A DNA stretch of 64,000 nt from a virus. The stretch lies in the IMG/VR virus record IMGVR_UViG_3300037156_000058, positions 4,692-68,691 of that record, one strand, 5' to 3'. A program made the translations under genes and the position numbers. A model generated the notes under the pieces. It was not told the DNA's origin, ran no database searches, and worked only from the letters and a program-made list of their open reading frames with translations. Of this stretch, positions 4,731 through 64,000 are shown piece after piece. Positions within the stretch are counted from its first letter, which is position 1. Every line of letters starts with the position of its first letter.

Positions 4731-5452
4731 TGCCTATTGACCCAAAGGATACTTATGCCGAGATTTGCAAGCGGGGGTGCGAGTGGTGCGCAAAGGGACA
4801 TACTGCAACCGTCGATAGAGGAACAGTTCACAAAGTTTATTCCATGAAATCGACAGCCCCGGACTGGCAAAAAGACGAAAGAGTCAAAGGATTTTCAGAA
4901 TACTTTCGATGCACCGCCTTTACCCGCGATCAGGTAATCGAGCGTCAAGCCACCGAGCTTACCGCGCAGGCCGAAATACTTCAGTTGAGAGAGCAGGAGT
5001 TGAACTCTCTCAATACAGAATTGAACGCTCAGGCCGAGACGATCCTGCGGCTGGAGATGGCTAATGTCGAAGCCCATGATGTAGCGACGGAACAACAGGA
5101 AATGCGTATAGAGCAGAACGAGACGATCCAGCGACTGCGAGATGCGGTGGAAGGATTACTGGTCATGATGGATTACGGACCCAAACCGCAGAAACTTGAT
5201 GCTGCACTCACTTGGCGACAAAATGACGAACTGGCGAGATCGAACGCGCTCAGCGCTCTTGCTGACCAGCCAGCGCCGCCCGCTCCAGCAGAGAGGGAGT
5301 GGCGGGCGCAGCATCGTCAGTTCCCGGGCATCGCAGTAAAGATTAGCCGATCCTGCGAATGGCAATCCTCCATCAATCCGGATTACCAATTGCAGTACTC
5401 CGACGACGGCGGAAAAACGTGGACCGACGCGGAGGTTACCGATGGAAAGTAA
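4730..5452 (+). CDS. coiled-coil hypothetical protein
   Basis: Start placed at ATG 4730 (TAATG overlap). Confidence 0.65.
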   Translation: MPIDPKDTYAEICKRGCEWCAKGHTATVDRGTVHKVYSMKSTAPDWQKDERVKGFSEYFRCTAFTRDQVIERQATELTAQAEILQLREQELNSLNTELNAQAETILRLEMANVEAHDVATEQQEMRIEQNETIQRLRDAVEGLLVMMDYGPKPQKLDAALTWRQNDELARSNALSALADQPAPPAPAEREWRAQHRQFPGIAVKISRSCEWQSSINPDYQLQYSDDGGKTWTDAEVTDGK

Positions 5453-5774
5453 GACGACGTTGAAGCCGTGCCCGTTTTGCGGATGCCTGGCTTCCTTGTG
5501 CCAACGTAATGGGGAGTTTCTAGCGGAGTGCGACAACCCGGAGTGCTCCGTAAACCCGTGTGCGGCAGAGGATTCCGAGGCTGCGGCGGTAGATGTGTGG
5601 AACACGCGCCCTCAGGACGCGATCCTCGAAGCGGCTCAACGGGTGGCGGATGCGCAGCGACGGTGGATGACCTGCGATTTGCCTGAATATGAATACGTAT
5701 TGGCGGCTAGTGAATTTCGAAATTCCGTAAACGCCCTCGCCGCGCTGCTGCCCGCTAAAGGAGAGAAGCCATGA
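5442..5774 (+). CDS. Lar-family restriction alleviation protein
   Basis: LKPCPFCG...C..C...A...WNTR signature. Confidence 0.75.
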   Translation: MESKTTLKPCPFCGCLASLCQRNGEFLAECDNPECSVNPCAAEDSEAAAVDVWNTRPQDAILEAAQRVADAQRRWMTCDLPEYEYVLAASEFRNSVNALAALLPAKGEKP

Positions 5775-5986
5775 GCGTTGACATGACCGACCGGAGATTT
5801 ACCTATTCACTACGCGTGTATTGTGATTCTCCCGGATGCGCAACATTCGAGGAAATCATCGGGAAAACTCAGCAAGGGTGTTTACGCCGCGCTGAACGTG
5901 AAGGGTGGACAGTCACAAAGAACCGCTTATTTACGGCATGCCCAGCATGTACGAAGAAGCTTACCGCGATAAAGGATATAGTATGA
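5771..5986 (+). CDS. zinc-ribbon hypothetical protein
   Basis: CDSPGC...GW...CPAC. Confidence 0.65.
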   Translation: MSVDMTDRRFTYSLRVYCDSPGCATFEEIIGKTQQGCLRRAEREGWTVTKNRLFTACPACTKKLTAIKDIV

Positions 5987-6330
5987 CGGACGCAGAAATC
6001 ACGAAACTGATCGCAACGCGCGTGATGGGCTGGACGTGGCACCAGAGAAGCGCATGGGTCGATCAGGAGGAAGGGAATGAAGATCGGGGGGCATGGGAAT
6101 GTAACAACCGATACGCCTATGGCCGCTACTTCAACCCGCCCGAATCCATCGCCGACGCGTGGCTCGTGGTCGAGAAATTGCGGGAACTGGACAATTATGT
6201 GCGTATTGAGCTACATCCTTCAGGTCAGTGGTGCCACGTAGCCGTTTGGAGACACGGAAAGATTACGAACATCAGGTCCGATACCGCCCCTATGGCGATT
6301 TGCCTGGCGGCACTGAGCGCGGTTAACTAG
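5983..6330 (+). CDS. phage ABA-sandwich domain protein
   Basis: IATRVMGW...SIADAWLVVEKL...APMAICLAAL pattern; start at the ATGA overlap. Confidence 0.75.
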   Translation: MTDAEITKLIATRVMGWTWHQRSAWVDQEEGNEDRGAWECNNRYAYGRYFNPPESIADAWLVVEKLRELDNYVRIELHPSGQWCHVAVWRHGKITNIRSDTAPMAICLAALSAVN

Positions 6331-6338
6331 GAGAAGGT

Positions 6339-6557
6339 ATGAACGATACTGCCGCAATCGCGATAGCTGAAGCTGTGGCGGGTTTGGATCTCACTCCGCC
6401 AGATTCTAAATGCCCGGTTGAGGTCTGCCGGAAATGCCGGAAGAGCCCAGTTTGGTCCCTTTCAACAAGAGGAATCTGTCTTAAATGCTGGCGGTTACGC
6501 AAGCGCTCAGAATCGACTCCCTGGCCCACTGATTCCTTGCTGACTGAATCCCGTTAA
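6339..6557 (+). CDS. hypothetical protein with CxxC pair
   Basis: GGAGAAGG RBS; overlaps the convergent endolysin end. Confidence 0.45.
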   Translation: MNDTAAIAIAEAVAGLDLTPPDSKCPVEVCRKCRKSPVWSLSTRGICLKCWRLRKRSESTPWPTDSLLTESR

Positions 6558-9311: not shown

Positions 9312-12300
9312 TCATTGCGCCACCATCCCGCCAACTACAGTACTGGCGGATACCAGCCACGACCCGGAGCCGTTGCCGAACGTGATCGTGCTGCCGTCTG
9401 AGAGGGTGACGGTAACCACTCCAGTTGTATACGCCACGACCGCGGTCGTTGCTCCCGTGCCGTCCAATGCAGCAGGGGAGAAGGTCGTTACCTCCGGCTT
9501 CGTGGCGTCAGCCGTGTAGGAGTTTGTGGCGGTCGTGTAGTTGGCCGGAATCGACGGCATGGAATAGTAAATCCATGATCCCCCAGCGGTAAAAGCTGGA
9601 CTCCCTGCTGCATTTGCCTCGGTGTTCGTCGGCCCATTGAATTTGACGATCACTTCTGAGCGTTGCCCCTTCATCGTGAATCCGGAGTTGGATGCAGAAC
9701 TGACAGCAGGGAGGGACTGAAGGTACTCTACGATTGCCCCCGCGCCGCTGGGTGTAATATCATCCAGCACGAATGCGAATCGCGACGCCCCACTGGTATA
9801 CATCACCCAAGTCCTTCGCATAGCTGTGACGCCTGCCGAGTAGGCCGCGCCACACACCATCGGGACCACCTGCCATGATCCGTTGTTACTCGCAGTTCCG
9901 AGCGTCGTCACGTTGGTATTCCCGCCGCCTACCGTGTTTCCATCCACCGAAAGCGAATTGTGATTAATCGCGGCTGGCAGGTTGTAGCCGGGGTCCAGAA
10001 GGAACTGCTCTCCCTGTGAGGACAAAGTGAACGTACAGGTGTCGTTCTCGTGGTGCTGTTGAGTTCCGACTTCATGATTAGAAGAACCTTTCAGTCCGAT
10101 GTATAAATCAGGGGTAGCCGTGTTAGTCTGCGATTTGATCGACCCCCATTGTGTTGAGGTGAGCAACGAAGGGCTTGGTAAGTTTACCTTGCTGATCGTG
10201 GTAGAAGGATTGGATGAGCGCCACATCATTGCGTACTGCGCGTATGGCAGTACATCGGATAGTGTGGCCATCCAGCGGTTGCCGCCCATCACGCAGTTTA
10301 GCGGCGCGCAATATGTCGCGTTGGGCTGCTGCGCCGCATCCTCTAGGTACATGAACCAGTCAGCCATCCAGGTTAGTTGCGCGTTTCCAGTGCGCTGCCC
10401 AATGTCGATCATCTGCGGAATCAATTGCACCAGAGGCTGAGAATCATTAAACGTGGTTAGCGCCGCCCCGTCCCAAAGCGTGTTGACGAAGTTCGCAACG
10501 TACTGGTAGTTTGTTGCGAAGAATCCGGGGTCGGCAGGGGAGTTTCCGACCAGCGTATTCGTGTTGATCCGCGCCCGAGCATAGACATCATAGGCTGTCG
10601 TTCCGTACTGAGCATAAAGAATCCCCTCGACATACCCGCCGTCTGGCATCCAGGTATAACCAGCCCACGTTAGTAATTGTGTGTCGATGGCAGAAAGCAG
10701 GATTTGCGCCGACGTGTTCACATAGGTAGTTGGCGCAGCATATCCACGAAGCGACTGAAGGCTGCTGTAGAGCGCCAATAAACAAACCCCACCACCTCCC
10801 TGCGTGATCACCACACGATTAGGCCATGAGTGGTCGGAACCCGATCCGCTGGGGTCATTTGTCTTTGCATAGTAGAAATAGTTAACCGCGTTCTGGAGAA
10901 ATACTTCATACTGTGCGCGCTGAGTCGGAGTAAGTGACGGGAAGAGAAGGTCGTACATCTGCGCGACAGGTAGAGCCGCATTGTTAAGTCCAGCGGGGAA
11001 ACCGTCCCAGTATAGATTCACGGTATCCAGCGGAAGCTGGTTATAAAAATCCCCTTGGTTGGCCGTCGTGATGCCAGCGCTGTAAGCCGTCAGGTCCGAA
11101 GCAACTCCGCTCAACAGGTATCTGTAACCATAGTCCATAAACGCCATATTGCGAAACGATGGATTTCCCCCGTTGATCGTGTCGTAAGTTATCGCCCGAG
11201 TCACAGCATCGGTGTAGTTTATGTACGCAGGGTTGATCCAACGTGCCTGAATAGCAGGAAGACCCGCCGCATTGAACTGTAGGTATGGGTGACCCGAATA
11301 CCCGAAACTGATCTTGCCTGTGGCCGGATACGTCCCGCTGCTGGTGGAGTCGTACACCGTGGTAGCCCCTGAGTTGCACTTCAGCATGATAGCGGGGCTT
11401 CCTTGCGATCCATTGGGAACTGCCACCGAAAGGCTTGTTGGGTTATTATAGGTGACCGTCCCTGAGATTCCCGAAAACGTGACCGTGCATGTTGAGTCGA
11501 ACCCAGCTCCGGCGAACTGCACTGTAGCGTCTGCCGAGTTCGCGGGAGTCGGAGGCACCTCAAATGGCATGATCGAGTACAGGATCGGAGCGGAGTAGTA
11601 AATGCCGGGATAGTACTCGCTGTCGATGTTGTTGCAGATCAGGTGTAGCCCGTACGTCGAGCCATTGGATTCGGTCGGTAACGCCACCGTAATCAGAGAA
11701 GTGCTGACGAAGCTGGGTGTGGCTGTCTGGACCGTACTCCCCTGCCCGATGCGAACCGAACAGCTTGCACCGGAGTTGAAATTCGTTCCGATCAGATTGA
11801 TCGTCTGTCCGGTCTGAAAACTTCCGCCTGCCGCAGCCGGGGAGATGCTCGTGACCGTCGCAGGGGTTCCTCCTGTGACTCCAGCCGCCACGCGGATGTT
11901 CGTAAACACACCGCCGGTATCGTAGCGTGACCCGACACCACCAGTGGTTCCCAAAGTATAGAGAGAAACGTACTGGAAAGACTTTGCCTGGTAAGCCGAT
12001 GGAATCGCCACGGTGTAGGAGTAGTACGGGACGGACCCATTCTTGTAGTTATCCGCCATCATGTTGAACGTCAGGTTATTCGATCCGTCTCGAATGATCT
12101 GAATCGTCCACTGCCAATTGGGGATCTGTGCCGATTCGTTCGCGCTCTGAGGCCAATTAAAGGACGTGTAAGCAGGGCCGAACGATGTCCCGAGTTGCTG
12201 GCCGACAATCAAATTAGTCGTCGTTGCGTAGTTCACAGGCAGGTTGCCGAGCCACATGCCCATGAAAGGACCTCCATTCATGTTTGCGAAAATAGACACG

Positions 12301-27500: not shown

Positions 27501-28119
27501 CAGATGCGCCACTCGAAACGAAGATGTTAACGCCAGTGAAGTATCCGCCAGTCACTCCCGTTGGATCTATTTCTATCGTGGCCGGGTTGATGTTGACAAC
27601 CGAAGCCGCGGCCAATACCACGCCGGGATAAGAGAAGCAACTCACTGTCGGCGGAGCTCCGGGTCCGTCTTGCGTCACGCGGTCCAGATTTGTGCCATCG
27701 TACTGAAGCGGAACGTCCGTGCCGTGTAGCCCGTCTGAGATCGCGATGTACTCGCGCCCGAACGCCGTGATCGACTTCGCGTAAGAGCCGGGAGTCGTGG
27801 TCGCCAGAAGCGTGTACGTTCCCGGCGATGATGTCAGGTTCTCGACCCACAGGTTGCCCGCAGAGTCCAGATAAAGATTGCGAATAACGCCAACCGGGTC
27901 AACGTAGCTTTTCCCGTAGGTGACGGTCACCGCGCCCATCGGCGTGTTGAAAACTTTCTTGAGGCCTCTGCGGGAGAAAACGGAGCCGGGAAGGAACTCC
28001 ATATCGGAGCAATCAGGGGAGACGCCTTCGGGGAGATCCGAAGGGTTCATGTCCGTGACAAGGCCACCGAATACGTCTACGGCGATATCTTTGTCAGTGG
28101 GTTGCGGATTAAAGGCCAC
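24520..28119 (-). CDS. large tail/nozzle protein (P22 gp10 / tubular protein B-like by position)
   Basis: FGGLVTDM.P..LP.G.SP.C..M.F N-terminus; beta-rich; follows the adaptor genes. Confidence 0.6.
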   Translation of the reverse strand: MAFNPQPTDKDIAVDVFGGLVTDMNPSDLPEGVSPDCSDMEFLPGSVFSRRGLKKVFNTPMGAVTVTYGKSYVDPVGVIRNLYLDSAGNLWVENLTSSPGTYTLLATTTPGSYAKSITAFGREYIAISDGLHGTDVPLQYDGTNLDRVTQDGPGAPPTVSCFSYPGVVLAAASVVNINPATIEIDPTGVTGGYFTGVNIFVSSGASALADNIGISITVSGTNATFNLTYTVTAVFGDTLIQAAAYSATGAFYGPAAGGQITYGGPSLSRSGNVVTGTTASAHNLQAGYQVQVSGVPAATIGTSVSTIVINNEDNPGLATVTMGSAHGLIPGLFISLTGVIGVAVGGGATAAVRVGQIVTVTTATSHGLSPNAQITTSSFATGSFNTTAFVQSVISPTQFTFVQVDVDATDTTGVISVNWYIPNNSPSPDYFQVLTAPSPTVFQIAINYSNSPAGGWATGTVKYAWSGSFFVSSVPTATSFTYQQYGPNASTSTTVGTLATPYGQAAPGQHQLQVAFLTRQDAITAPSPPVKFTANGGQYISVKDIPIGPSNIKGRILCFTGAQGAYFYYIPTPPQVNGILVGTATQINDNTTANIVLDFSDNALFSAIGISLQGNNLANQIVLDGALGFGLYSSRLLAYGQRNAIQGGTGAGGLLNMGFDGGYFKSNPTLPTGWDATLNVGGALATGHYGSGWLITTVAGGGNKGILSQSMYQNYSGAPVAAASTQYKIRAWLKPSVATANLTFTVAITSATGATFSSVATISGALMSTSGSWLEAPFSLKTPSIIPADLLLSVYASSVTTSPTLLVDEMFIIYSDNPYTDEIINGSYVNNPEGFDGVSGVFGPEDTHKVMGLSEIRKTLYVLTRDPGGHLHETADNGTTEPAGWDVDPTASECGLISTFALTVSQADENTESGGETWMAWASSSGARIFSGGDVPKISQEIQPDWDSVNTATLASAWALNDPNGRVIYFGLPISSAENRVPNRIYTMNYRQMSTASEIAGADPVHVSLTGKLSAKDNARKWCPWVLTMNGAALMYRAAGKLQPVFFGGDGVAPNTGSLLLYGNVYTLDPAKLTDDDYGQIHPYYFLYFLPGTEQGQQMGIGSRSMLAYLTAQIYGVGLMTITPFCDNLSNPWALSCSRTMTVNPKFDLEWVGANAVANRMSFKCSSSPVTGTDNSFVLQLIRAWLRTNARLPIRGAAR

Positions 28120-28147
28120 GGTAGGTTCCGATTGGCGTCAACCGCGA

Positions 28148-28495
28148 TTACAGTTTCTGGAAAAACGCCCGGAAGTAGAGCGTGGCCGGAATCGTGCCGG
28201 AATAGGCCGATGCTCCCGTGTACTGTGTAGTTCCGTTGAACACTTCCACCCTGCCATTTGCCTGCGTGCTGCCGGGGTCGAATTTGTACTCCCATCCAGA
28301 TTGAGACGCGCCGGCGGGGGCAATCTCAAACACGTTGGCGGAAGTTGGCGGCGTGCTACTCGGAACGCCAATAGTGGACAGGTCGAGCGGATCGCCGGTC
28401 GTGACGTAGTTTCCGCTGGTAGTGATTGTGCCGTTCACGATGAACTGCGAAGCTGTGAAGTCGATGCTGGTTACGGTTGCGACGACGAGTGCCAT
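28148..28495 (-). CDS. small structural protein
   Basis: GGGAG RBS; beta-rich, Y.TTGDPLDL motif. Confidence 0.6.
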   Translation of the reverse strand: MALVVATVTSIDFTASQFIVNGTITTSGNYVTTGDPLDLSTIGVPSSTPPTSANVFEIAPAGASQSGWEYKFDPGSTQANGRVEVFNGTTQYTGASAYSGTIPATLYFRAFFQKL

Positions 28496-28532
28496 GTGAT
28501 CTCCCTGCCTTCAGGAGATAGAATATCACAGG

Positions 28533-28697
28533 TCATTTCACCACCGGCCTGTCCGCAAACTCGCGCAACCGCTTCGACGCTGCAATAACCCGCTTCGGAC
28601 GCTTCTCGCACGTCTTGAAGTGCGGGCGGTCCTCAACTGCGGTCTGAGGTTTTCCGCACCAGCCACAGGGACGGGTTACGCCGGGTTTACCTGACAT
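28533..28697 (-). CDS. 54-aa C2HC zinc-finger protein (not in ORF track)
   Basis: My translation: MSGKPGVTRPCGWCGKPQTAVEDRPHFKTCEKRPKRVIAASKRLREFADRPVVK*. Confidence 0.55.
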   Translation of the reverse strand: MSGKPGVTRPCGWCGKPQTAVEDRPHFKTCEKRPKRVIAASKRLREFADRPVVK

Positions 28698-28872
28698 TCA
28701 TAGCCTCTGCGATTACGTCCCGCATCTTAAGCGCCGAACCGCACGGACCCAGTAAAGCGCCAGCGAATAATACGCGATCGCTCATAACGGAAGCGTCTGG
28801 CGTGACCTTTATCTCGACGGAATCGAAACCGTCAAGCCAATCGAGTATTTGAGTGTCGGTCGGACGTTCCAT
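28687..28872 (-). CDS. 61-aa hypothetical protein, apparently leaderless
   Basis: TGATATGCT 6 nt before ATG; DTQILDWL...RDVIAEAM phage motif. Confidence 0.6.
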   Translation of the reverse strand: MERPTDTQILDWLDGFDSVEIKVTPDASVMSDRVLFAGALLGPCGSALKMRDVIAEAMNVR

Positions 28873-28917
28873 GACAGAAGCATATCACATCTCTGTCAGG
28901 AATGGTATACTTGATTT

Positions 28918-29028
28918 GGAGATTCGGCACAAACATGGCTCATGGTCAGAGTACTCGTACTGCGACTAATCTTAAAGATGGTCAAGGCCCACGCGGATAC
29001 AGTGGAAAGCGCTGACTGCCGAATCTCC
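28918..29028 (+). ncRNA. candidate 111-nt structured RNA
   Basis: Perfect 12-bp terminal inverted repeat GGAGATTCGGCA/TGCCGAATCTCC starting 6 nt after TGGTATACT; internal hairpins. Confidence 0.5.
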
Positions 29029-29029
29029 G

Positions 29030-29878
29030 TTAATACCCGCCGCCGTAATACCCAGCGTTACCTCCACGGCCTGAACGCGGTTGACGTGTGACGGTTACGC
29101 GCTGTTTCATGCGGACATCGCGATTGAACATCAATTTCGCGCCAGCCTCCGCAGCCTTCGACTGAGACTCCGAAGCTGCCGCCGCCTGCTCTGCCGCTTC
29201 CGCATCGTTCGACGGAGTTCTCGCAATTGAGTACTCGTGAACAATGCGCCATGCGAACGGTTCAAGACAGCGTGCCAACGGGCACGATTGTTGATACCAA
29301 CGTGTCGTGGCGCTATTCACGAAGTCCGCCAGGTACTGCACGTACAGAATCCGCAAATCCATCGACATAGAAGATCCGGGAAGGTAGATCGACGCATTAC
29401 GCCACTCCCACATGCCGTTGCACGTTGAAGACTTCGACTGCGACGGCATCCCGTCCAGATAACACTCCATCGGCGTATCGGGGAAAAACTGATTCTGATT
29501 CGTCCAGCGTTCCCAGACTTTCAGCGGGTGAACGAACGTGGACGGCAGCACCGGCGTGCTCTGATAATTCGTGCCGTCGAAGAATGTATTCCAGTTGATG
29601 AACTGCTGGGTGGAAGGGTCTTGGCTGGTCATCGCCGGAATGCCCGTGATGATGACTTCCTGCTTCAGGGGCGTGTAGCCCATGTCGGCAAGAGTTTCCT
29701 GCAGCCATCGCCACGCTGCGTTCGTGACCGTCTGGCTGAAGGCGTCTTCGGTGTCGAGAATCTTTCCGCCTGTCGCGACGATGGACTTCAGCTTGTCGTT
29801 GAGGCGGGTTCGCGCAAGGTTTAAGATCGAGATCAGCGGGTCGTTGATGGTGGAATTCGGCGGAATAATAGTCGGCAC
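29030..29878 (-). CDS. putative head-tail adaptor (paralog 2)
   Basis: ARTRLND...N.AWR.LQ..LA pattern; synteny. Confidence 0.6.
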   Translation of the reverse strand: MPTIIPPNSTINDPLISILNLARTRLNDKLKSIVATGGKILDTEDAFSQTVTNAAWRWLQETLADMGYTPLKQEVIITGIPAMTSQDPSTQQFINWNTFFDGTNYQSTPVLPSTFVHPLKVWERWTNQNQFFPDTPMECYLDGMPSQSKSSTCNGMWEWRNASIYLPGSSMSMDLRILYVQYLADFVNSATTRWYQQSCPLARCLEPFAWRIVHEYSIARTPSNDAEAAEQAAAASESQSKAAEAGAKLMFNRDVRMKQRVTVTRQPRSGRGGNAGYYGGGY

Positions 29879-29879
29879 G

Positions 29880-30782
29880 TTACTGCGCTCCCATCGGCTG
29901 CGCTCCAGGCGTCAAGCGATCCGGCATCTTCCCCACTTCACTCGCCTTGGCCAGCGCCCGTGCTGCCTGCAAATCCCGACCAGCAATCAAAGCAATCCCC
30001 GCATCGGCCTTCGCGCTGAACGAAGCTGCGTCGATATCGCCGCGAGAGCCAGCCATTTCCACGCAGATGAGATCCGCGAACGGGCTCAAGCATTGCACGA
30101 TCGGTACAGCCTGATTGGGACTCACCGAAATATCCGTGAAGTCAGCCAAATACGATCCGCCGCGGACTCGCAGATCCGTCAACCCCAAAGCACCGGGAAG
30201 GTAAATCTTGTTGTCTCGCCAGTCCCAGGAGAAATTCCACGAGTCCTGCGGAACGGCCGGCAGTCCGTTCAATACCTGATCCATATCGAGGAAACTCTGA
30301 TTGGGCGCATCGACAGGAAAGGGCGGTGCCAGAGCGACGATCTGGTCGATCTGGCTCTGAGTGTAGCCGTCATTCGCCAGCGCGTTCTCGAAGTCCTGTA
30401 GCGTCGTACTGGCTGGCGCCGCGATGTTGATTCGCTCCCAAAGAGTCAGCGGAGAAATGAACCACTGCGGACAGACGAAAGAAGTGTTGAGGGAGTTTCC
30501 GTCCCAATAGCCGGTCCAATCAAGCCACACCTGAGTTCCTGGGTCCGGAGGGGAGCCGAATACTGGAGGAAGTCCGGACAGAATGAATTCTTTCTCGAAC
30601 AGGAGGTAGCCGAGCCCCGCGAGTTTTCGCTGGAGAACGCGCCACGCGAGGTTCACAATGGGAAGCGTAAATGGCTGCGAGTCCATCAAAACTTCGCCGC
30701 CGAGAGACTGAATAGAATCGTTCAGACGAACGCGCGCTGCGTTGCAAACCGTTTCTATCGTATCGAGGGGGGCCGTTGGCAC
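29880..30782 (-). CDS. putative head-tail adaptor (paralog 1)
   Basis: Alignable by eye with 29030-29878. Confidence 0.6.
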   Translation of the reverse strand: MPTAPLDTIETVCNAARVRLNDSIQSLGGEVLMDSQPFTLPIVNLAWRVLQRKLAGLGYLLFEKEFILSGLPPVFGSPPDPGTQVWLDWTGYWDGNSLNTSFVCPQWFISPLTLWERINIAAPASTTLQDFENALANDGYTQSQIDQIVALAPPFPVDAPNQSFLDMDQVLNGLPAVPQDSWNFSWDWRDNKIYLPGALGLTDLRVRGGSYLADFTDISVSPNQAVPIVQCLSPFADLICVEMAGSRGDIDAASFSAKADAGIALIAGRDLQAARALAKASEVGKMPDRLTPGAQPMGAQ

Positions 30783-33016: not shown

Positions 33017-34026
33017 CGGGTCACCGTGATTTTGGGTTCGGCAAGGAAGGTGTCTACCTTGAAATCCACGCCTGGACGGAACTGAGGTGCTGTCGTCGTG
33101 TCGAAAACTACGTCCTCCGCCCTGGGTTCGTGGTTGGGCGGGAGATCGGGATTCTTCGCAAGCCAATCAGCCTTGGATTTGCGGTCGCTGCCGTAACGCT
33201 CTAAATACCTGAGCGCGTTCAATGCCCATCCGTCAACGTACTCGACCGGGTGCAAAGCGGTATTGCACTTGGCGCACAACAGACCGCGCGCCTCTCCTGT
33301 CTCATGATCGTGGTCGATTACGAGGTACAGGCGCTCTCCAACGATTGCGTTTGGCGGTAGTTTTCTCCCATCGGTGGTTGCTGGACACAATGCACAGTGG
33401 CCACCCTGTTCCGCCAGTTTAGCGTCGTACCAGGCTGGAGTCACCTTGTACTTTTTCATCATCCAAGAAGCACGTACCGAGTCTCTGTTTTCTACGCGCC
33501 ATCCGCTTATCCATTCAGCGAACTCCGCTTTTTCTTCGGGTGTTTGCGCGTCCCTGCGGTCTTGCATTTTAGATCCGACGCAAAGTTTGCATTTTCCGTG
33601 AGTTTGATCCCCAGCAAATTGCGTGACTGGCACGAAAGATTTGCACTTTCCCGCGCACCACTTCAACCCATTGGATTCGGCATCGCGAACCATTTCAATC
33701 GTTATGCCGCGCTTTGCCAGTCTGGGATGTACTTGGTTTGCCCGCGCCTGTCGAAGCAATTCTTTGGCTTCTTCGGTATGGTGCTGACCGTTGCGGGTTC
33801 CTGGTTGCCCAGTGTGGGCGAGCCGCATCTTTTCAATAGTCTCTGGACTGAAAATGCGCCCCTTCATCTTGAGGCTCATAGCGGCCCGCGACTCGGCAGA
33901 CCTGACCCGCCCCGTAGACGCTAACGCTTTCTTTTGCCGCGTCTCCTCGCTGTCTTTCCAGCCCGTTCGTGCGGCGCTTAACCGCGCCTTTTGTTCTTCG
34001 GTAAAATGCTGTCCTTTTGGTGGCAT
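33013..34026 (-). CDS. NUMOD3 + endonuclease VII-family homing endonuclease-like protein
   Basis: HFTEEQKARLS-type repeats; CALC...IDHDHETG.ARGLLCAKCN. Confidence 0.85.
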   Translation of the reverse strand: MPPKGQHFTEEQKARLSAARTGWKDSEETRQKKALASTGRVRSAESRAAMSLKMKGRIFSPETIEKMRLAHTGQPGTRNGQHHTEEAKELLRQARANQVHPRLAKRGITIEMVRDAESNGLKWCAGKCKSFVPVTQFAGDQTHGKCKLCVGSKMQDRRDAQTPEEKAEFAEWISGWRVENRDSVRASWMMKKYKVTPAWYDAKLAEQGGHCALCPATTDGRKLPPNAIVGERLYLVIDHDHETGEARGLLCAKCNTALHPVEYVDGWALNALRYLERYGSDRKSKADWLAKNPDLPPNHEPRAEDVVFDTTTAPQFRPGVDFKVDTFLAEPKITVTR

Positions 34027-34064
34027 ACCATCAGTATACCACCAAAAGGATACTTCGAATCGCC

Positions 34065-37540: not shown

Positions 37541-38251
37541 TTATGACAGCGATGATCCGCTGCGCGGTTGAATGCTGAAATAATCTTCCGGCCACGGCAT
37601 TTCTTCTTCCCACTTCTTTTTAAGTTGCGCCCGTGACGGGAAATCGTTTGGTAATGGACGCAGGCGATTGTTCGTGTTTGGGTCAAGTCCAGCCTGAATC
37701 ATAGCTTCGTCGGTCCCGCCAAACCTGGACTCAATAGCCCCGAGGCTCAACTGGTCGCATTCCCGGATGTCTTGGTGCGTAGGAGTATGTCCGATGGTCG
37801 CAGCCAAAACCTGAATACGGAAAAGCATCTGAGCCGTGCACCGCGCCTTGAGATTGTGGTTTTCAACGACGCGGGGAGTTACCGACTTGCCTGTCCTGGC
37901 TATAGTGGAACGCTTTACGGCCTCTCTGGCCTCGCGGGACTGAACACCACGACCGGGACCGCCGTGTTGTTTTGCTACGACCCGATGTTTGGCCCTAGTC
38001 CCCAGGCTGGATATCGGACTAGACGGACGCAATCCGTGAAGTCGATTGTATTCCGCCTTATTGATGGAGTGCTTTGCTCTGATGTGATTGCCGAGTCCCT
38101 TGAGCCATGCGCCGCACTCATGGCATTTGGTTTGGTCCAACGCTTCGTCGTACTCAATCGCGCCGAGCAAGGATTGTCCACTCTGCATAAATGGGGCTTT
38201 TTCGGCGATAGGGAAGGGGTGTCCGTGAATCAAAACGTGTGACGCTTGCAT
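37541..38251 (-). CDS. MucR/ROS-like zinc finger + homing-endonuclease-associated repeat protein
   Basis: CHECG...L..HI...H......Y...HGL; TPT...RFGG...A...AGL. Confidence 0.6.
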   Translation of the reverse strand: MQASHVLIHGHPFPIAEKAPFMQSGQSLLGAIEYDEALDQTKCHECGAWLKGLGNHIRAKHSINKAEYNRLHGLRPSSPISSLGTRAKHRVVAKQHGGPGRGVQSREAREAVKRSTIARTGKSVTPRVVENHNLKARCTAQMLFRIQVLAATIGHTPTHQDIRECDQLSLGAIESRFGGTDEAMIQAGLDPNTNNRLRPLPNDFPSRAQLKKKWEEEMPWPEDYFSIQPRSGSSLS

Positions 38252-43339: not shown

Positions 43340-43828
43340 CTACCCTCGCATCATGGCGTGCATCCCCGCCATTCCCATACCTTCGTCGCCATCATTGTCG
43401 CTCGGCATTTCGCCGCCTTCTCCGTTCATGACAGAGGCCATGTGCTGTCCAGCCTCTTCCGGGGATTCGTGTTCGCTTGCCTGCGGATCGCCACCATCAG
43501 CCGCGTGGTGCATCTTGACCGACATTCCGTCGTGGTGCGCGTGGACGTGAGTGCCTTCCGGCTCGTGATGCGCGGCCATGTGAACGAGAGCGTGTCCTAT
43601 CGACGGATGCTCTGTCTTTGCGCCGTCGATAACGGAATGATAACTACCGTCGCCGTGGGCGTGAAGTTCGGAGCCGCCGCCTTCGTTGGGATCTTCCATG
43701 GCAGGCTTACCTGCCATCCCAGGCTTACTTGCTTGCGGGGGCTTCGCTGTGCGGGCCGCTGCTGATTTGTCTGCCTGTCTCGCTAATTGATGGTTGGGGC
43801 GAAACTTTCCGTCAGATGATATTGGCAT
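43340..43828 (-). CDS. His-rich hypothetical protein
   Basis: AGGA RBS; repeated His/Gly/Asp segments. Confidence 0.7.
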   Translation of the reverse strand: MPISSDGKFRPNHQLARQADKSAAARTAKPPQASKPGMAGKPAMEDPNEGGGSELHAHGDGSYHSVIDGAKTEHPSIGHALVHMAAHHEPEGTHVHAHHDGMSVKMHHAADGGDPQASEHESPEEAGQHMASVMNGEGGEMPSDNDGDEGMGMAGMHAMMRG

Positions 43829-44552
43829 TCTTTTGTTCCTTCCTTTTTGCCCACCATGCGGTTATCGAGGCGGACATTTTCTTTCTGTATTCCGGATCAG
43901 TGTTACTTATCCTAACGGCCGCTGTGAGATTTTTTTTATGAATCTCCGAAAGCGGTTTTCCTATATACCGTTCCCTTTGCCGTTGCTGGTTTTGGGGGTC
44001 AGACCAGTACAATTTACCTCGCTCGCCAAGCGCCCTGCACTCTTCCTTGGTACGCGTCCTGGAATGGCAAAATGGGTGGGTTCCGTCTGCGATCCCGCGC
44101 TTAGCAAAGTCACTTAACAGGCGCTTTGTCTCGTCGCTAACCCTGTACCCCAATCGACCAGATACGACTTTAGCCCTAAAATCGGAATCCTGCCACAACA
44201 AGAGCATTCTCTTGCGGGACGCTTCTAGTTGTTCCTTGGTGGGCGGAATGCCACGCACTCCATCTCCCCCGATAGTTCTGTTGTAGCCGTATTTTGGGTG
44301 ATTGCTGCCAGCCGCCTCAATGGACTTGATTTCCATCATAGCCAGCTCCCATTCATCGAACGTTTCCAGGATGCTTTCGATGGTGAAGTTTTCGACTCCG
44401 TATTTTTTAATTGCAGCGTAGATGCCGTACCCGTAGCGCGGCAGTTTAGCGGCCCATAGATGCTCCCTCCATCTGCGGGACAGGTTCTTGTGAACCGTCT
44501 TACCGATATATACCTTGCCGTTTTTATGGTTACGGATTCTGTATAGGTGCAT
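43812..44552 (-). CDS. GIY-YIG homing endonuclease with NUMOD3-like repeats
   Basis: LYRIRN..NGKVYIGKT...RW.EH; GYN.T.GGDG. Confidence 0.9.
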   Translation of the reverse strand: MHLYRIRNHKNGKVYIGKTVHKNLSRRWREHLWAAKLPRYGYGIYAAIKKYGVENFTIESILETFDEWELAMMEIKSIEAAGSNHPKYGYNRTIGGDGVRGIPPTKEQLEASRKRMLLLWQDSDFRAKVVSGRLGYRVSDETKRLLSDFAKRGIADGTHPFCHSRTRTKEECRALGERGKLYWSDPQNQQRQRERYIGKPLSEIHKKNLTAAVRISNTDPEYRKKMSASITAWWAKRKEQKNANII

Positions 44553-57353: not shown

Positions 57354-57623
57354 TTGGGGAATCAATTCCCCAACCCCCCACAAATAAGTCCCATAGAATC
57401 AACGTTGGGGAAATTGGGGAAAGTTGCTGACCGCCAGCCCTCATGCACGTAAAGCTACAACACGAGCAACACACAGTAACAACAGAATTACGGCTCTTAT
57501 GTGAGTCCCATATTATTTCCCCAATTCCCCAATTTCATACTGAAATCTTTTGTACCTGAAAGAAAATTAAGAAGTTAACTATTTGGGGAATTGCTTGGGG
57601 AATGGTTGGGGAAACGTGGGGAA
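57354..57623. repeat. iteron-like TTGGGGAA array, putative replication origin
   Basis: Nine exact copies in both orientations plus one near copy, with an AT-rich spacer, directly after the ATPase gene. Confidence 0.65.
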
Positions 57624-58024
57624 TTGGAAATATACCTCGGAGCCCACTCGCCGCCCCACCCCAAAACCCCCACGACGAATCGCCAGACCACCGTATTTAG
57701 CGTTTACAGCCCCGCCAGCGATTTCCGTGTGTACTGGGTGCGGAAAACCCCCAACGATTGAAATTTACCGTGGTTCTGTGATACTGGAGGCCATCCTGCA
57801 TTCACACCGTACCAACAATTCTCGATAGGGGGGCGACGTGTGAGGTACTTGGTTCAGGCCCCCGGTACCTCATGGTGGCAAGGAGATGGCTAGGAGGGTA
57901 GATGGCACAGGTCTACGTCTACAGCGTAGTCCTCGTCTATACCTGGAAGTAGTCCTTCGACAAGGAGTAGACCTACCTTGTCCTGTTGTTGATAACACTA
58001 GACTTACTGGGGTATACTGTAGCT

Positions 58025-63579: not shown

Positions 63580-64000
63580 ATGTGCAATTTCGCCTCATTC
63601 GTGCTGACAAAAGACCGTGAGTTCTGGTCTGACACATCCGACTCGCATACGGATATCATCCGTGAGCACTCCCTATGTGAGGATGGAGCGCGCGGAGTAA
63701 ATATTATCCGCGTGGAGATTTCCCCGACGGACAAGATCAAGATTTGGCCTTCGCTGAAAGCGTGGTCGTACAAGGTCGACCAGGACATCTTACCGGAGTG
63801 GCACATTCGGGAGACGACCGAGAAGCGCACGCGCGCGGCGTTGGCGCGCCGATTTAAGTCAGGGTTCACGCGGCTGGACCTGAGCGGCTGTACCGGACTC
63901 ACCGAGGTATCCGCCCCGGCCGCGACCGTACTGGACCTGAGCGGCTGTACCGGACTCACCGAGGTATCCGCCCCGGCCGCGACCGTACTGGACCTGAGCG
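63580..64000 (+). CDS. leucine-rich-repeat protein, partial (runs off window)
   Basis: MCNFASFVLTKD...VDQDILPEW N-domain, then LDLSGCTGLTEVSAPAATV repeats. Confidence 0.8.
   Translation, partial: MCNFASFVLTKDREFWSDTSDSHTDIIREHSLCEDGARGVNIIRVEISPTDKIKIWPSLKAWSYKVDQDILPEWHIRETTEKRTRAALARRFKSGFTRLDLSGCTGLTEVSAPAATVLDLSGCTGLTEVSAPAATVLDLS
63874..64000 (+). repeat. perfect 57-bp tandem repeat (at least 2.2 copies)
   Basis: Units start at 63874, 63931 and 63988. Confidence 0.95.

Follow-up and report, generated by a model that had tools for sequence, protein, structure and literature searches.

A strain-specific 127-nt insert in the structural gene block of a peat phage: a candidate orphan small transcription unit closed by a 12-bp helix

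Stable RNAs closed by a terminal helix are known from several systems, including tRNA-like RNAs, Y RNA/YrlA, 6S RNA and the phi29 pRNA, and in the type I toxin mRNAs hok and AapA1 a long-distance fold-back between the 5' and 3' ends hides the ribosome-binding site. In phages, morons have been defined as autonomous promoter-gene-terminator inserts between genes of the late operon (Juhala et al., 2000, as quoted in PMC10914365). Antisense RNAs with defined starts are common in phages; twenty of them are described for five Pseudomonas phages in PMC10914365. The locus compared with these systems here lies in a window of 64,000 nucleotides (nt), positions 4692-68691 of the 68.7-kb IMG/VR virus record IMGVR_UViG_3300037156_000058 (estimated completeness 79%), where a 127-nt block (block A) between two conserved structural genes carries an extended -10 promoter-like box and, behind it, a 111-nt element bounded by perfect 12-bp inverted repeats (Table 1). 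As in the stable RNAs closed by a terminal helix, a single helix joins the two ends of the element, a layout suggestive of stability and of a 3' end defined by trimming; in contrast to those RNAs, it has no match in Rfam, ARAGORN reports nothing for it and its interior is unstructured. Like a moron, it is missing where relatives have the two flanking genes side by side and, by sequence match, it has a putative host-type promoter box of its own, whereas it differs from a moron in having no terminator, in its length of 127 nt, in having no established product and in pointing against the operon. It would also resemble the antisense and small RNAs of PMC10914365 in being a short unit opposite the structural-gene strand, but those RNAs were transcript-mapped, whereas the element is known from its sequence alone and has no family relationship to them.

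We favour, tentatively and at a probability of about 0.35, a reading in which block A is a strain-specific accessory insert that would form a minimal plus-strand transcription unit with a non-coding product. That block A would be a plus-strand unit of either kind, whether non-coding (a stable small RNA and/or a cis-antisense RNA) or a micro-mRNA, appears somewhat better than an even bet. The insert and its boundaries, the box with its spacing and the helix can be read directly from the letters, and it is from these that a transcript, its end and its action are predicted below.

The evidence for an insert comes from the comparison of the slot with its relatives. The upstream flanking gene, coding for a protein of 282 amino acids (aa), has 20 homologues, of which P0002-P0005 are 72-79% identical to it, and a profile built from them retrieved 43 viral and 35 metagenome loci (78, with some contigs in both collections). 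Both this gene and the downstream flanking gene (115 aa) were detected by tblastn in 64 of the 78 loci, and in 60 of these 64 the two alignments end 40-236 nt apart, so that the flanking genes are neighbours there; the exceptions are L032 (987 nt, a match on the upstream paralogue), L034 (370 nt), L038 (340 nt) and L045 (1302 nt). The two genes are separated by 534 nt in the window. L045, which is 95% identical to the window in the 282-aa protein, gives the sharpest comparison. In that locus the stop codon of the corresponding 284-aa gene is directly followed by TTCCTGACAG, after which come a promoter box and the start (ATG) of a zinc-finger gene of 56 aa, whereas in the window the same landmarks, compared as minus-strand letters, lie 127 nt apart, and blastn confirms this gap. 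Block A is therefore missing from L045, which agrees with the moron-like insert proposed in a first-pass annotation of this DNA. It starts at the extended -10 box and ends 1 nt past the 3' arm of the repeat, and these bounds suggest that promoter and helix form one unit. A second segment (block B), which holds a 61-aa open reading frame (ORF), is also absent from L045, which keeps the zinc-finger gene and its promoter; the 30-nt promoter/operator stretch between blocks A and B is identical at 22 of 30 positions in the two loci (hand count). The L045 slot carries different cargo, including a reverse-oriented HNH-type gene. On this comparison, block A is rightly described as an insert, and the slot that it occupies, with a conserved structural gene on either side, is variable and a hotspot. 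In L045 the 115-aa homologue stands between two further genes of reverse orientation, at 4957-5694 and 5878-6387 on the minus strand of that locus, which have HNH-like motifs; the corresponding junctions of the window are empty. Four peat metagenome runs were compared for the element, and in contigs of two of them (X2 and X4) it is identical, with 0 differing letters, so that these copies offer no variation in which covariation could be seen.

The argument for the direction of the unit comes from its promoter box. Back-to-back extended -10 boxes overlapping an inverted repeat, TGACAGA/TCTGTCA, had been reported in the first pass and lie exactly where it placed them. A promoter scan lists the plus-strand site as ATCACA-16-TATACT with a TG, at 9 of 12 matches. 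The inverted repeat looks like an operator, since it extends across the -10 box of the minus strand and reaches the -35 region of the plus-strand box; L045 keeps its left arm, and its right arm falls over the zinc-finger start codon there. Counting both strands, the window holds 46 TGNTANNNT boxes, only four of which match TATAAT at five of six positions (hand count). An ATG or GTG stands exactly 6 nt after the box in 4 of the 46, and these head ORFs of 433, 250 (a resolvase), 337 (Endonuclease_7/NUMOD3) and 61 aa; the box of the leaderless 337-aa gene is the same 9-mer, TGGTATACT, as the plus-strand box of block A. From these layouts, this phage seems to make a habit of leaderless genes whose start lies 7 nt behind an extended -10 box, particularly among its selfish or accessory genes. 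The 6-nt spacing seen elsewhere therefore predicts that transcription of block A would start at G28918, the first base of the helix, and this spacing is the main argument that supports a plus-strand reading, antisense to the structural genes. No minus-strand promoter box is listed inside the element. The Endonuclease_7/NUMOD3 gene has its TGGTATACT box and start codon bracketed by a perfect 12-bp inverted repeat (34012-34050, spacer 15 nt); the left arm of this repeat lies upstream of the predicted start, and it therefore resembles a DNA operator.

The arms of the element, GGAGATTCGGCA and TGCCGAATCTCC, form the perfect stem noted in the first pass, the 5' arm beginning 6 nt after the plus-strand box. 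The window contains four local inverted repeats of this kind (12 bp, perfect, gap of at most 150 nt), against 0.6 +/- 0.9 expected from 30 Markov simulations. The whole 111 nt fold on the plus strand at -39.6 kcal/mol (z -3.14), a value reached by 1 of 200 shuffles, and the closing pairs of the 12-bp helix have probabilities of 0.98-1.00. A wider class of units with a box and a closed stem was considered and dropped: 373 boxes gave 7 matches (3 distinct), where 2.7 are expected, and the present element alone has 12 bp. Its GC content is 0.52, low against the roughly 0.51-0.60 per kb of the window.

Table 1. Features of the locus and of the genes and boxes compared with it (window coordinates).
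Feature	Position	Strand	Remarks
111-nt element	28918..29028	+	perfect 12-bp arms 28918-28929 / 29017-29028 around an 87-nt loop
Block A, 127 nt	28903..29029		absent from L045; extended -10 box + 6 nt + 111-nt element + 1 nt
Extended -10 promoter-like box TGGTATACT	28903-28911	+	-35-like ATCACA at 28884-28889
Extended -10 box TGATATGCT	28887-28879	-	followed after 6 nt by the 61-aa ORF (leaderless layout)
Inverted repeat TGACAGA / TCTGTCA	28872-28878 / 28892-28898		spans minus-strand -10 box, touches -35 region of plus-strand box
26-codon ORF P0065	28935..29015	+	starts 5 nt after 5' arm; stop ends 1 nt before 3' arm
Block B, segment of the 61-aa ORF	28872..28698		absent from L045
61-aa ORF	28687..28872	-	ATG 6 nt after minus-strand box; overlaps zinc-finger start by 11 nt
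54-aa C2HC zinc-finger gene	28533..28697	-	C-x2-C...H-x3-C
282-aa conserved structural-block gene (upstream flank)	29030..29878	-	stop codon 1 nt from the 111-nt element
115-aa conserved gene (downstream flank)	28148..28495	-	GGGAGA ribosome-binding site
Extended -10 box TGATATTCT	28520..28528	-	upstream of the 115-aa structural gene
Box 6 nt before start of 433-aa ORF	50881-50873	-	
Box 6 nt before start of 250-aa ORF	48536-48528	-	resolvase
Box 6 nt before start of 337-aa ORF	34041-34033	-	Endonuclease_7/NUMOD3; 9-mer TGGTATACT
Box 6 nt before start of 61-aa ORF (TGATATGCT, as above)	28887-28879	-	
Endonuclease_7/NUMOD3 gene, 337 aa	33013-34026	-	selfish gene
HNH_repeat/ROS_MUCR gene	37541-38251		selfish gene in structural/packaging block
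GIY-YIG/NUMOD3 gene	43812-44552		selfish gene in structural/packaging block
Resolvase gene, 250 aa	47769-48521		in structural/packaging block

In the favoured reading, a host RNA polymerase of the sigma-70 type would use the TGGTATACT box and start at G28918, nt 1-12 of the transcript would pair perfectly with nt 100-111, and the 5' end would be buried in the helix. The clamped product could be a discrete molecule or the 5' domain of a longer antisense transcript; with no terminator, the 3' end would either be trimmed back to the helix or arise by read-through antisense to the 3' end of the 282-aa gene. The product would then be a stable small RNA displaying an 87-nt, weakly structured loop, and the same transcript may also act in cis as an antisense or interfering RNA against the late genes. 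The operator-like repeat over both back-to-back promoters may co-regulate it with the operon of the 61-aa ORF and the zinc finger. Read in this way, the element would be an orphan phage accessory small transcription unit, not a new category. That it might instead be the first member of an unrecognised class of phage small RNAs, with helix-clamped ends, a large open loop, an operator common with a conserved zinc-finger protein and a role in sequestering a host factor, as decoy or sponge, with anti-defence as one example, is in our view highly improbable.

Several results weigh against a structured, functional plus-strand RNA. The folding signal of the element resides wholly in the closing stem: the inner 87 nt fold on the plus strand at -19.0 (z 0.04, 91 of 200 shuffles as good) and on the minus strand at -16.8 (z 0.51, 133 of 200 shuffles as good). 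The CATG, AGTAC, ATCT and CAGTG hairpins that had been described inside the stem are thus present as short palindromes, but they fold no better than shuffles and give no signal of a structured RNA, and an interior with no structure above chance is unusual in a structured functional RNA. The two strands of the element fold equally well, the minus strand at -37.9 kcal/mol (z -3.23, 0 of 200 shuffles as good). No intrinsic plus-strand terminator follows position 29028, the sole entry of the scan there being a weak hairpin that falls within the 282-aa gene (29085-29101). No match or complement to the element of at least 12 nt occurs elsewhere in the window, so that no trans target is evident in the phage. 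Among the sequencing runs listed for this sequence, none is an RNA run. A covariance model (R1) built from the single sequence of the element, run against 79 sources, found only the element itself; the model gave 0 matches in the full records of 43 relatives (the L045 record not being among them), a best E of 0.092 in 12 viral loci with zinc-finger homologues (a 30-nt GC hairpin, not significant) and a best E of 0.35, again not significant, in L045 and three contigs of metagenome-assembled genomes (MAGs). A reading frame that fills the loop, discussed below (p about 0.003), favours a coding rival. Since the repeat was what drew the eye to this locus, all chance estimates are post hoc.

Searches for known relatives were likewise negative, and the first-pass remark that the RNA family was not recognised is borne out by them. 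Rfam 15 gave no family for the region 28000-29600 at E <= 10 (the sole match, at 29413-29448, is unrelated and scores 16 bits) and 0 matches at gathering scores over the whole window, and ARAGORN found 0 genes for transfer RNA (tRNA) or transfer-messenger RNA (tmRNA) in the window. The element is single-copy in its 68.7-kb record. Scans for the arms at the same spacing, which detect exact arms only, found 0 in IMG/VR and 0 in one genome each of 185,579 species. By blastn, the 1.8-kb region had no match among phage records, and the element had only 21-nt chance matches to phages (E 0.4) and none to plasmids.

Among the rivals, the one to which we give the highest probability is a functionless relic of selfish-DNA traffic, for instance the promoter end left behind when a reverse-oriented gene was lost, with repeat and position coincidental. 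This phage carries Endonuclease_7/NUMOD3, GIY-YIG, HNH_repeat and resolvase genes, several of them with boxes of their own, a reverse-oriented HNH-type gene occupies the same slot in L045, and about 0.6 perfect 12-bp local repeats are expected per window by chance. For such a relic, however, a repeat would have had to land by chance in the 534-nt slot, with its ends no more than 1 nt and 15 nt from the indel boundaries, and its first base would also have to be exactly the seventh after a strong extended -10 box, of which the two strands (128 kb) hold only 4. We still regard a relic as a serious if unlikely explanation, because the finding was picked by eye, the interior is featureless with no homologue in the searches, and the phage is rich in selfish DNA.

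The next rival is a plus-strand micro-mRNA for the 26-aa product of P0065, in which the helix would lock the 5' end, including a GGAG at 28918-28921 (the start of the 5' arm), against the sequence after the stop, and ribosomes could translate the ORF only while the chain is still growing and its 3' arm has yet to be synthesised. The ORF fits the loop from arm to arm; frames with such a fit turn up in 0.27% of 100000 shuffles, and of 4408 real 87-nt windows 10 have one (by the looser criterion of a complete ATG ORF of at least 20 codons, 3.1% of shuffles); the unstructured interior would suit an mRNA, and tiny genes are dense in phages. The arrangement recalls hok and AapA1 in that a 5'-3' helix, here in silico, encloses a very small ORF and includes a GGAG. 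It differs from them in that no overlapping antisense RNA gene is visible, in the poor spacing of the GGAG, 13 nt upstream of the ATG whereas the clear ribosome-binding sites of this phage sit 4-6 nt from the start, and in the peptide itself, which is hydrophilic, rich in glycine, serine and threonine and of low complexity (mean hydropathy -0.8 to -2.0 in 11-residue windows), unlike a membrane toxin. Codon usage also argues against translation, as third-position GC is 0.31 (hand count) against 0.56-0.72 in genes of the phage, and the GC codon-phase periodicity over the element is not significant (p 0.24). P0065 has no PHROG match, and the peptide is too short for homologue searches. We judge this micro-mRNA improbable, while counting it as the main rival to a non-coding product. 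A longer plus-strand frame of 49 aa (28942..29091) is not proposed as a gene, as it leaves the insert and runs into the antisense of the 282-aa gene; it has no homologue, no PHROG match and low Atlas recognition.

The element could instead work in the minus-strand mRNA of the 282-aa gene, as a 3' untranslated structure (a stabiliser, a processing site or an insulator before the promoter of the 61-aa ORF). It begins 1 nt after the stop codon of that gene, and the folding of the minus strand would suit such a role just as well. It is followed, however, by no U tract and the scan lists no minus-strand terminator, nothing similar stands at this junction in the relatives, the 15 nt of the block outside the helix, with their inward-pointing box, would be left unexplained, and a ribosome stopping 1 nt from the helix would presumably open its 5' arm repeatedly, all of which makes a minus-strand role quite improbable. 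An intrinsic terminator of the upstream late gene, which the first pass had named as a possible refutation, was checked and rejected, as the scan lists no terminator on that strand here, the loop within the helix is 87 nt long, and no T run comes after it. A miniature inverted-repeat transposable element, that is, a DNA parasite with 12-bp terminal inverted repeats, would fit a short, 111-bp unit with perfect terminal repeats in an insertion hotspot, but is very improbable given that there is no target-site duplication (the flanks GATTT and GTTAA have no common direct repeat), that no other copy was found in the record or by the exact-arm scans of IMG/VR and of the 185,579 species, and that the unit delimited by the repeats falls 16 nt short of the indel block.

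Leftward of the boxes, the two micro-proteins described in the first pass, a leaderless-layout 61-aa ORF and a 54-aa C2HC protein, are both present. They lie on the same strand as the structural genes, so that the antisense orientation once ascribed to the module as a whole applies, by box orientation, to the putative RNA only. The 61-aa ORF is the sole member of its cluster among 5.8 billion proteins, has no tblastn match in the 78 related loci and has no Pfam or PHROG match. Its GC content by codon position is 0.60/0.42/0.56, and it overlaps the zinc-finger start, which stands behind a GAGG; the leaderless start, this overlap and the codon-position GC suit a real, recently acquired gene. Two structure models of the 61-aa protein were left unused: an all-helical AlphaFold2 model (predicted local distance difference test, pLDDT, 60.9; predicted template modelling score, pTM, 0.23), and an Atlas model (pLDDT 0.66) that disagrees with it and has weak, sub-threshold likeness to HicB/UPF0150, dsrm and a phage ABA sandwich.

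The 54-aa protein has 43 representative homologues (E <= 0.001); P-C-G-W-C, R, H and C are invariant, C11, C14, H26 and C30 being so in 21 sequences, and the L045 copy is 82% identical; on these alignments, it is a member of a real small family. Its AlphaFold2 model (pLDDT 86.6) has a beta-hairpin (strands 9-10 and 17-18) and two helices, one of them at 20-29, and by this model it resembles a classical beta-beta-alpha C2HC finger, with the conserved C-x2-C in the hairpin and H-x3-C in the helix. Its top Foldseek matches are C2HC/C2H2 fingers, none at E < 1, its best PDB profile match has an E of 0.0019, and it matches no Pfam family. An exact-peptide search of viral contigs with the 282-aa protein, the 61-aa ORF and the zinc finger found none for each.

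The zinc-finger gene occurs without the element in L045, where the 61-aa ORF is also missing, and in 12 viral loci with homologues, in which R1 had no significant match. The proposal of a self-contained module of one RNA and two proteins, with co-occurrence of element and zinc finger as its expected trace, is consequently not supported, the 61-aa ORF moreover having no homologue at all. In the unrelated viral contigs L081, L085, L086 and L088/L089 (about 1900-2000), zinc-finger homologues stand just behind a TTGACA...-10 promoter, their start codons apparently about 7 nt after the -10, and in L081, L086 and L088/L089 a TGTCA mirrors the -35, TGACA...TGTCA pairs flanking the zinc-finger promoters. 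From these sequences, a promoter/operator and leaderless layout would be conserved for the zinc-finger family, which supports the TGACAGA/TCTGTCA repeat of the window as a putative operator, perhaps one for the 54-aa protein.

This uncultivated phage is one of a large family of peat and soil phages that has hardly been annotated, and stretches identical to the window are present in contigs of several peat metagenome runs. A host could not be named from MAG relatives, and the attempt was dropped, as the three contigs are labelled Hydrogenedentes, Terracidiphilus and Elusimicrobia and are mutually inconsistent. The minus-strand gene block around the locus is long (about 8.3 to 51.6 kb of the window), with weak PHROG matches to a major head protein, a virion structural protein and a tail fiber, and the structural and packaging genes are dotted with three free-standing genes of homing-endonuclease type and the 250-aa resolvase. 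The 282-aa gene and a 300-aa gene are tandem paralogues (29030-30782); both queries match one and the same gene in many related loci, and some relatives may be single-copy. The profile of the 282-aa family had no match in the PDB. Outside the locus, TGGGGAA/TTCCCCA repeats cluster in both orientations at 57360-57640 in an apparently non-coding stretch, including a perfect 12-bp inverted repeat at 57410/57525, and look like replication-origin iterons or a regulator binding array. Another perfect 12-bp inverted repeat, with a 125-nt gap, lies at 9466-9614 inside a 1120-aa ORF, with a third partial copy near 9704, and a 57-nt unit is present in two perfect tandem copies at 63874-63987, at the window end, inside open frames that run off the window.

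At present the value of the element is that of a lead, formed by one orphan sequence. If the plus-strand transcript is real, block A would be among the smallest self-contained phage accessory units described, with a 9-nt box and a 111-nt product, and it would offer a clean case for 3'-end formation without a terminator, as well as for the question whether a 5'-3' clamp stabilises an RNA or limits the translation of a micro-ORF. The leaderless box layout and the PCGWC zinc-finger family behind TGACA/TGTCA promoters may prove the more reusable result.

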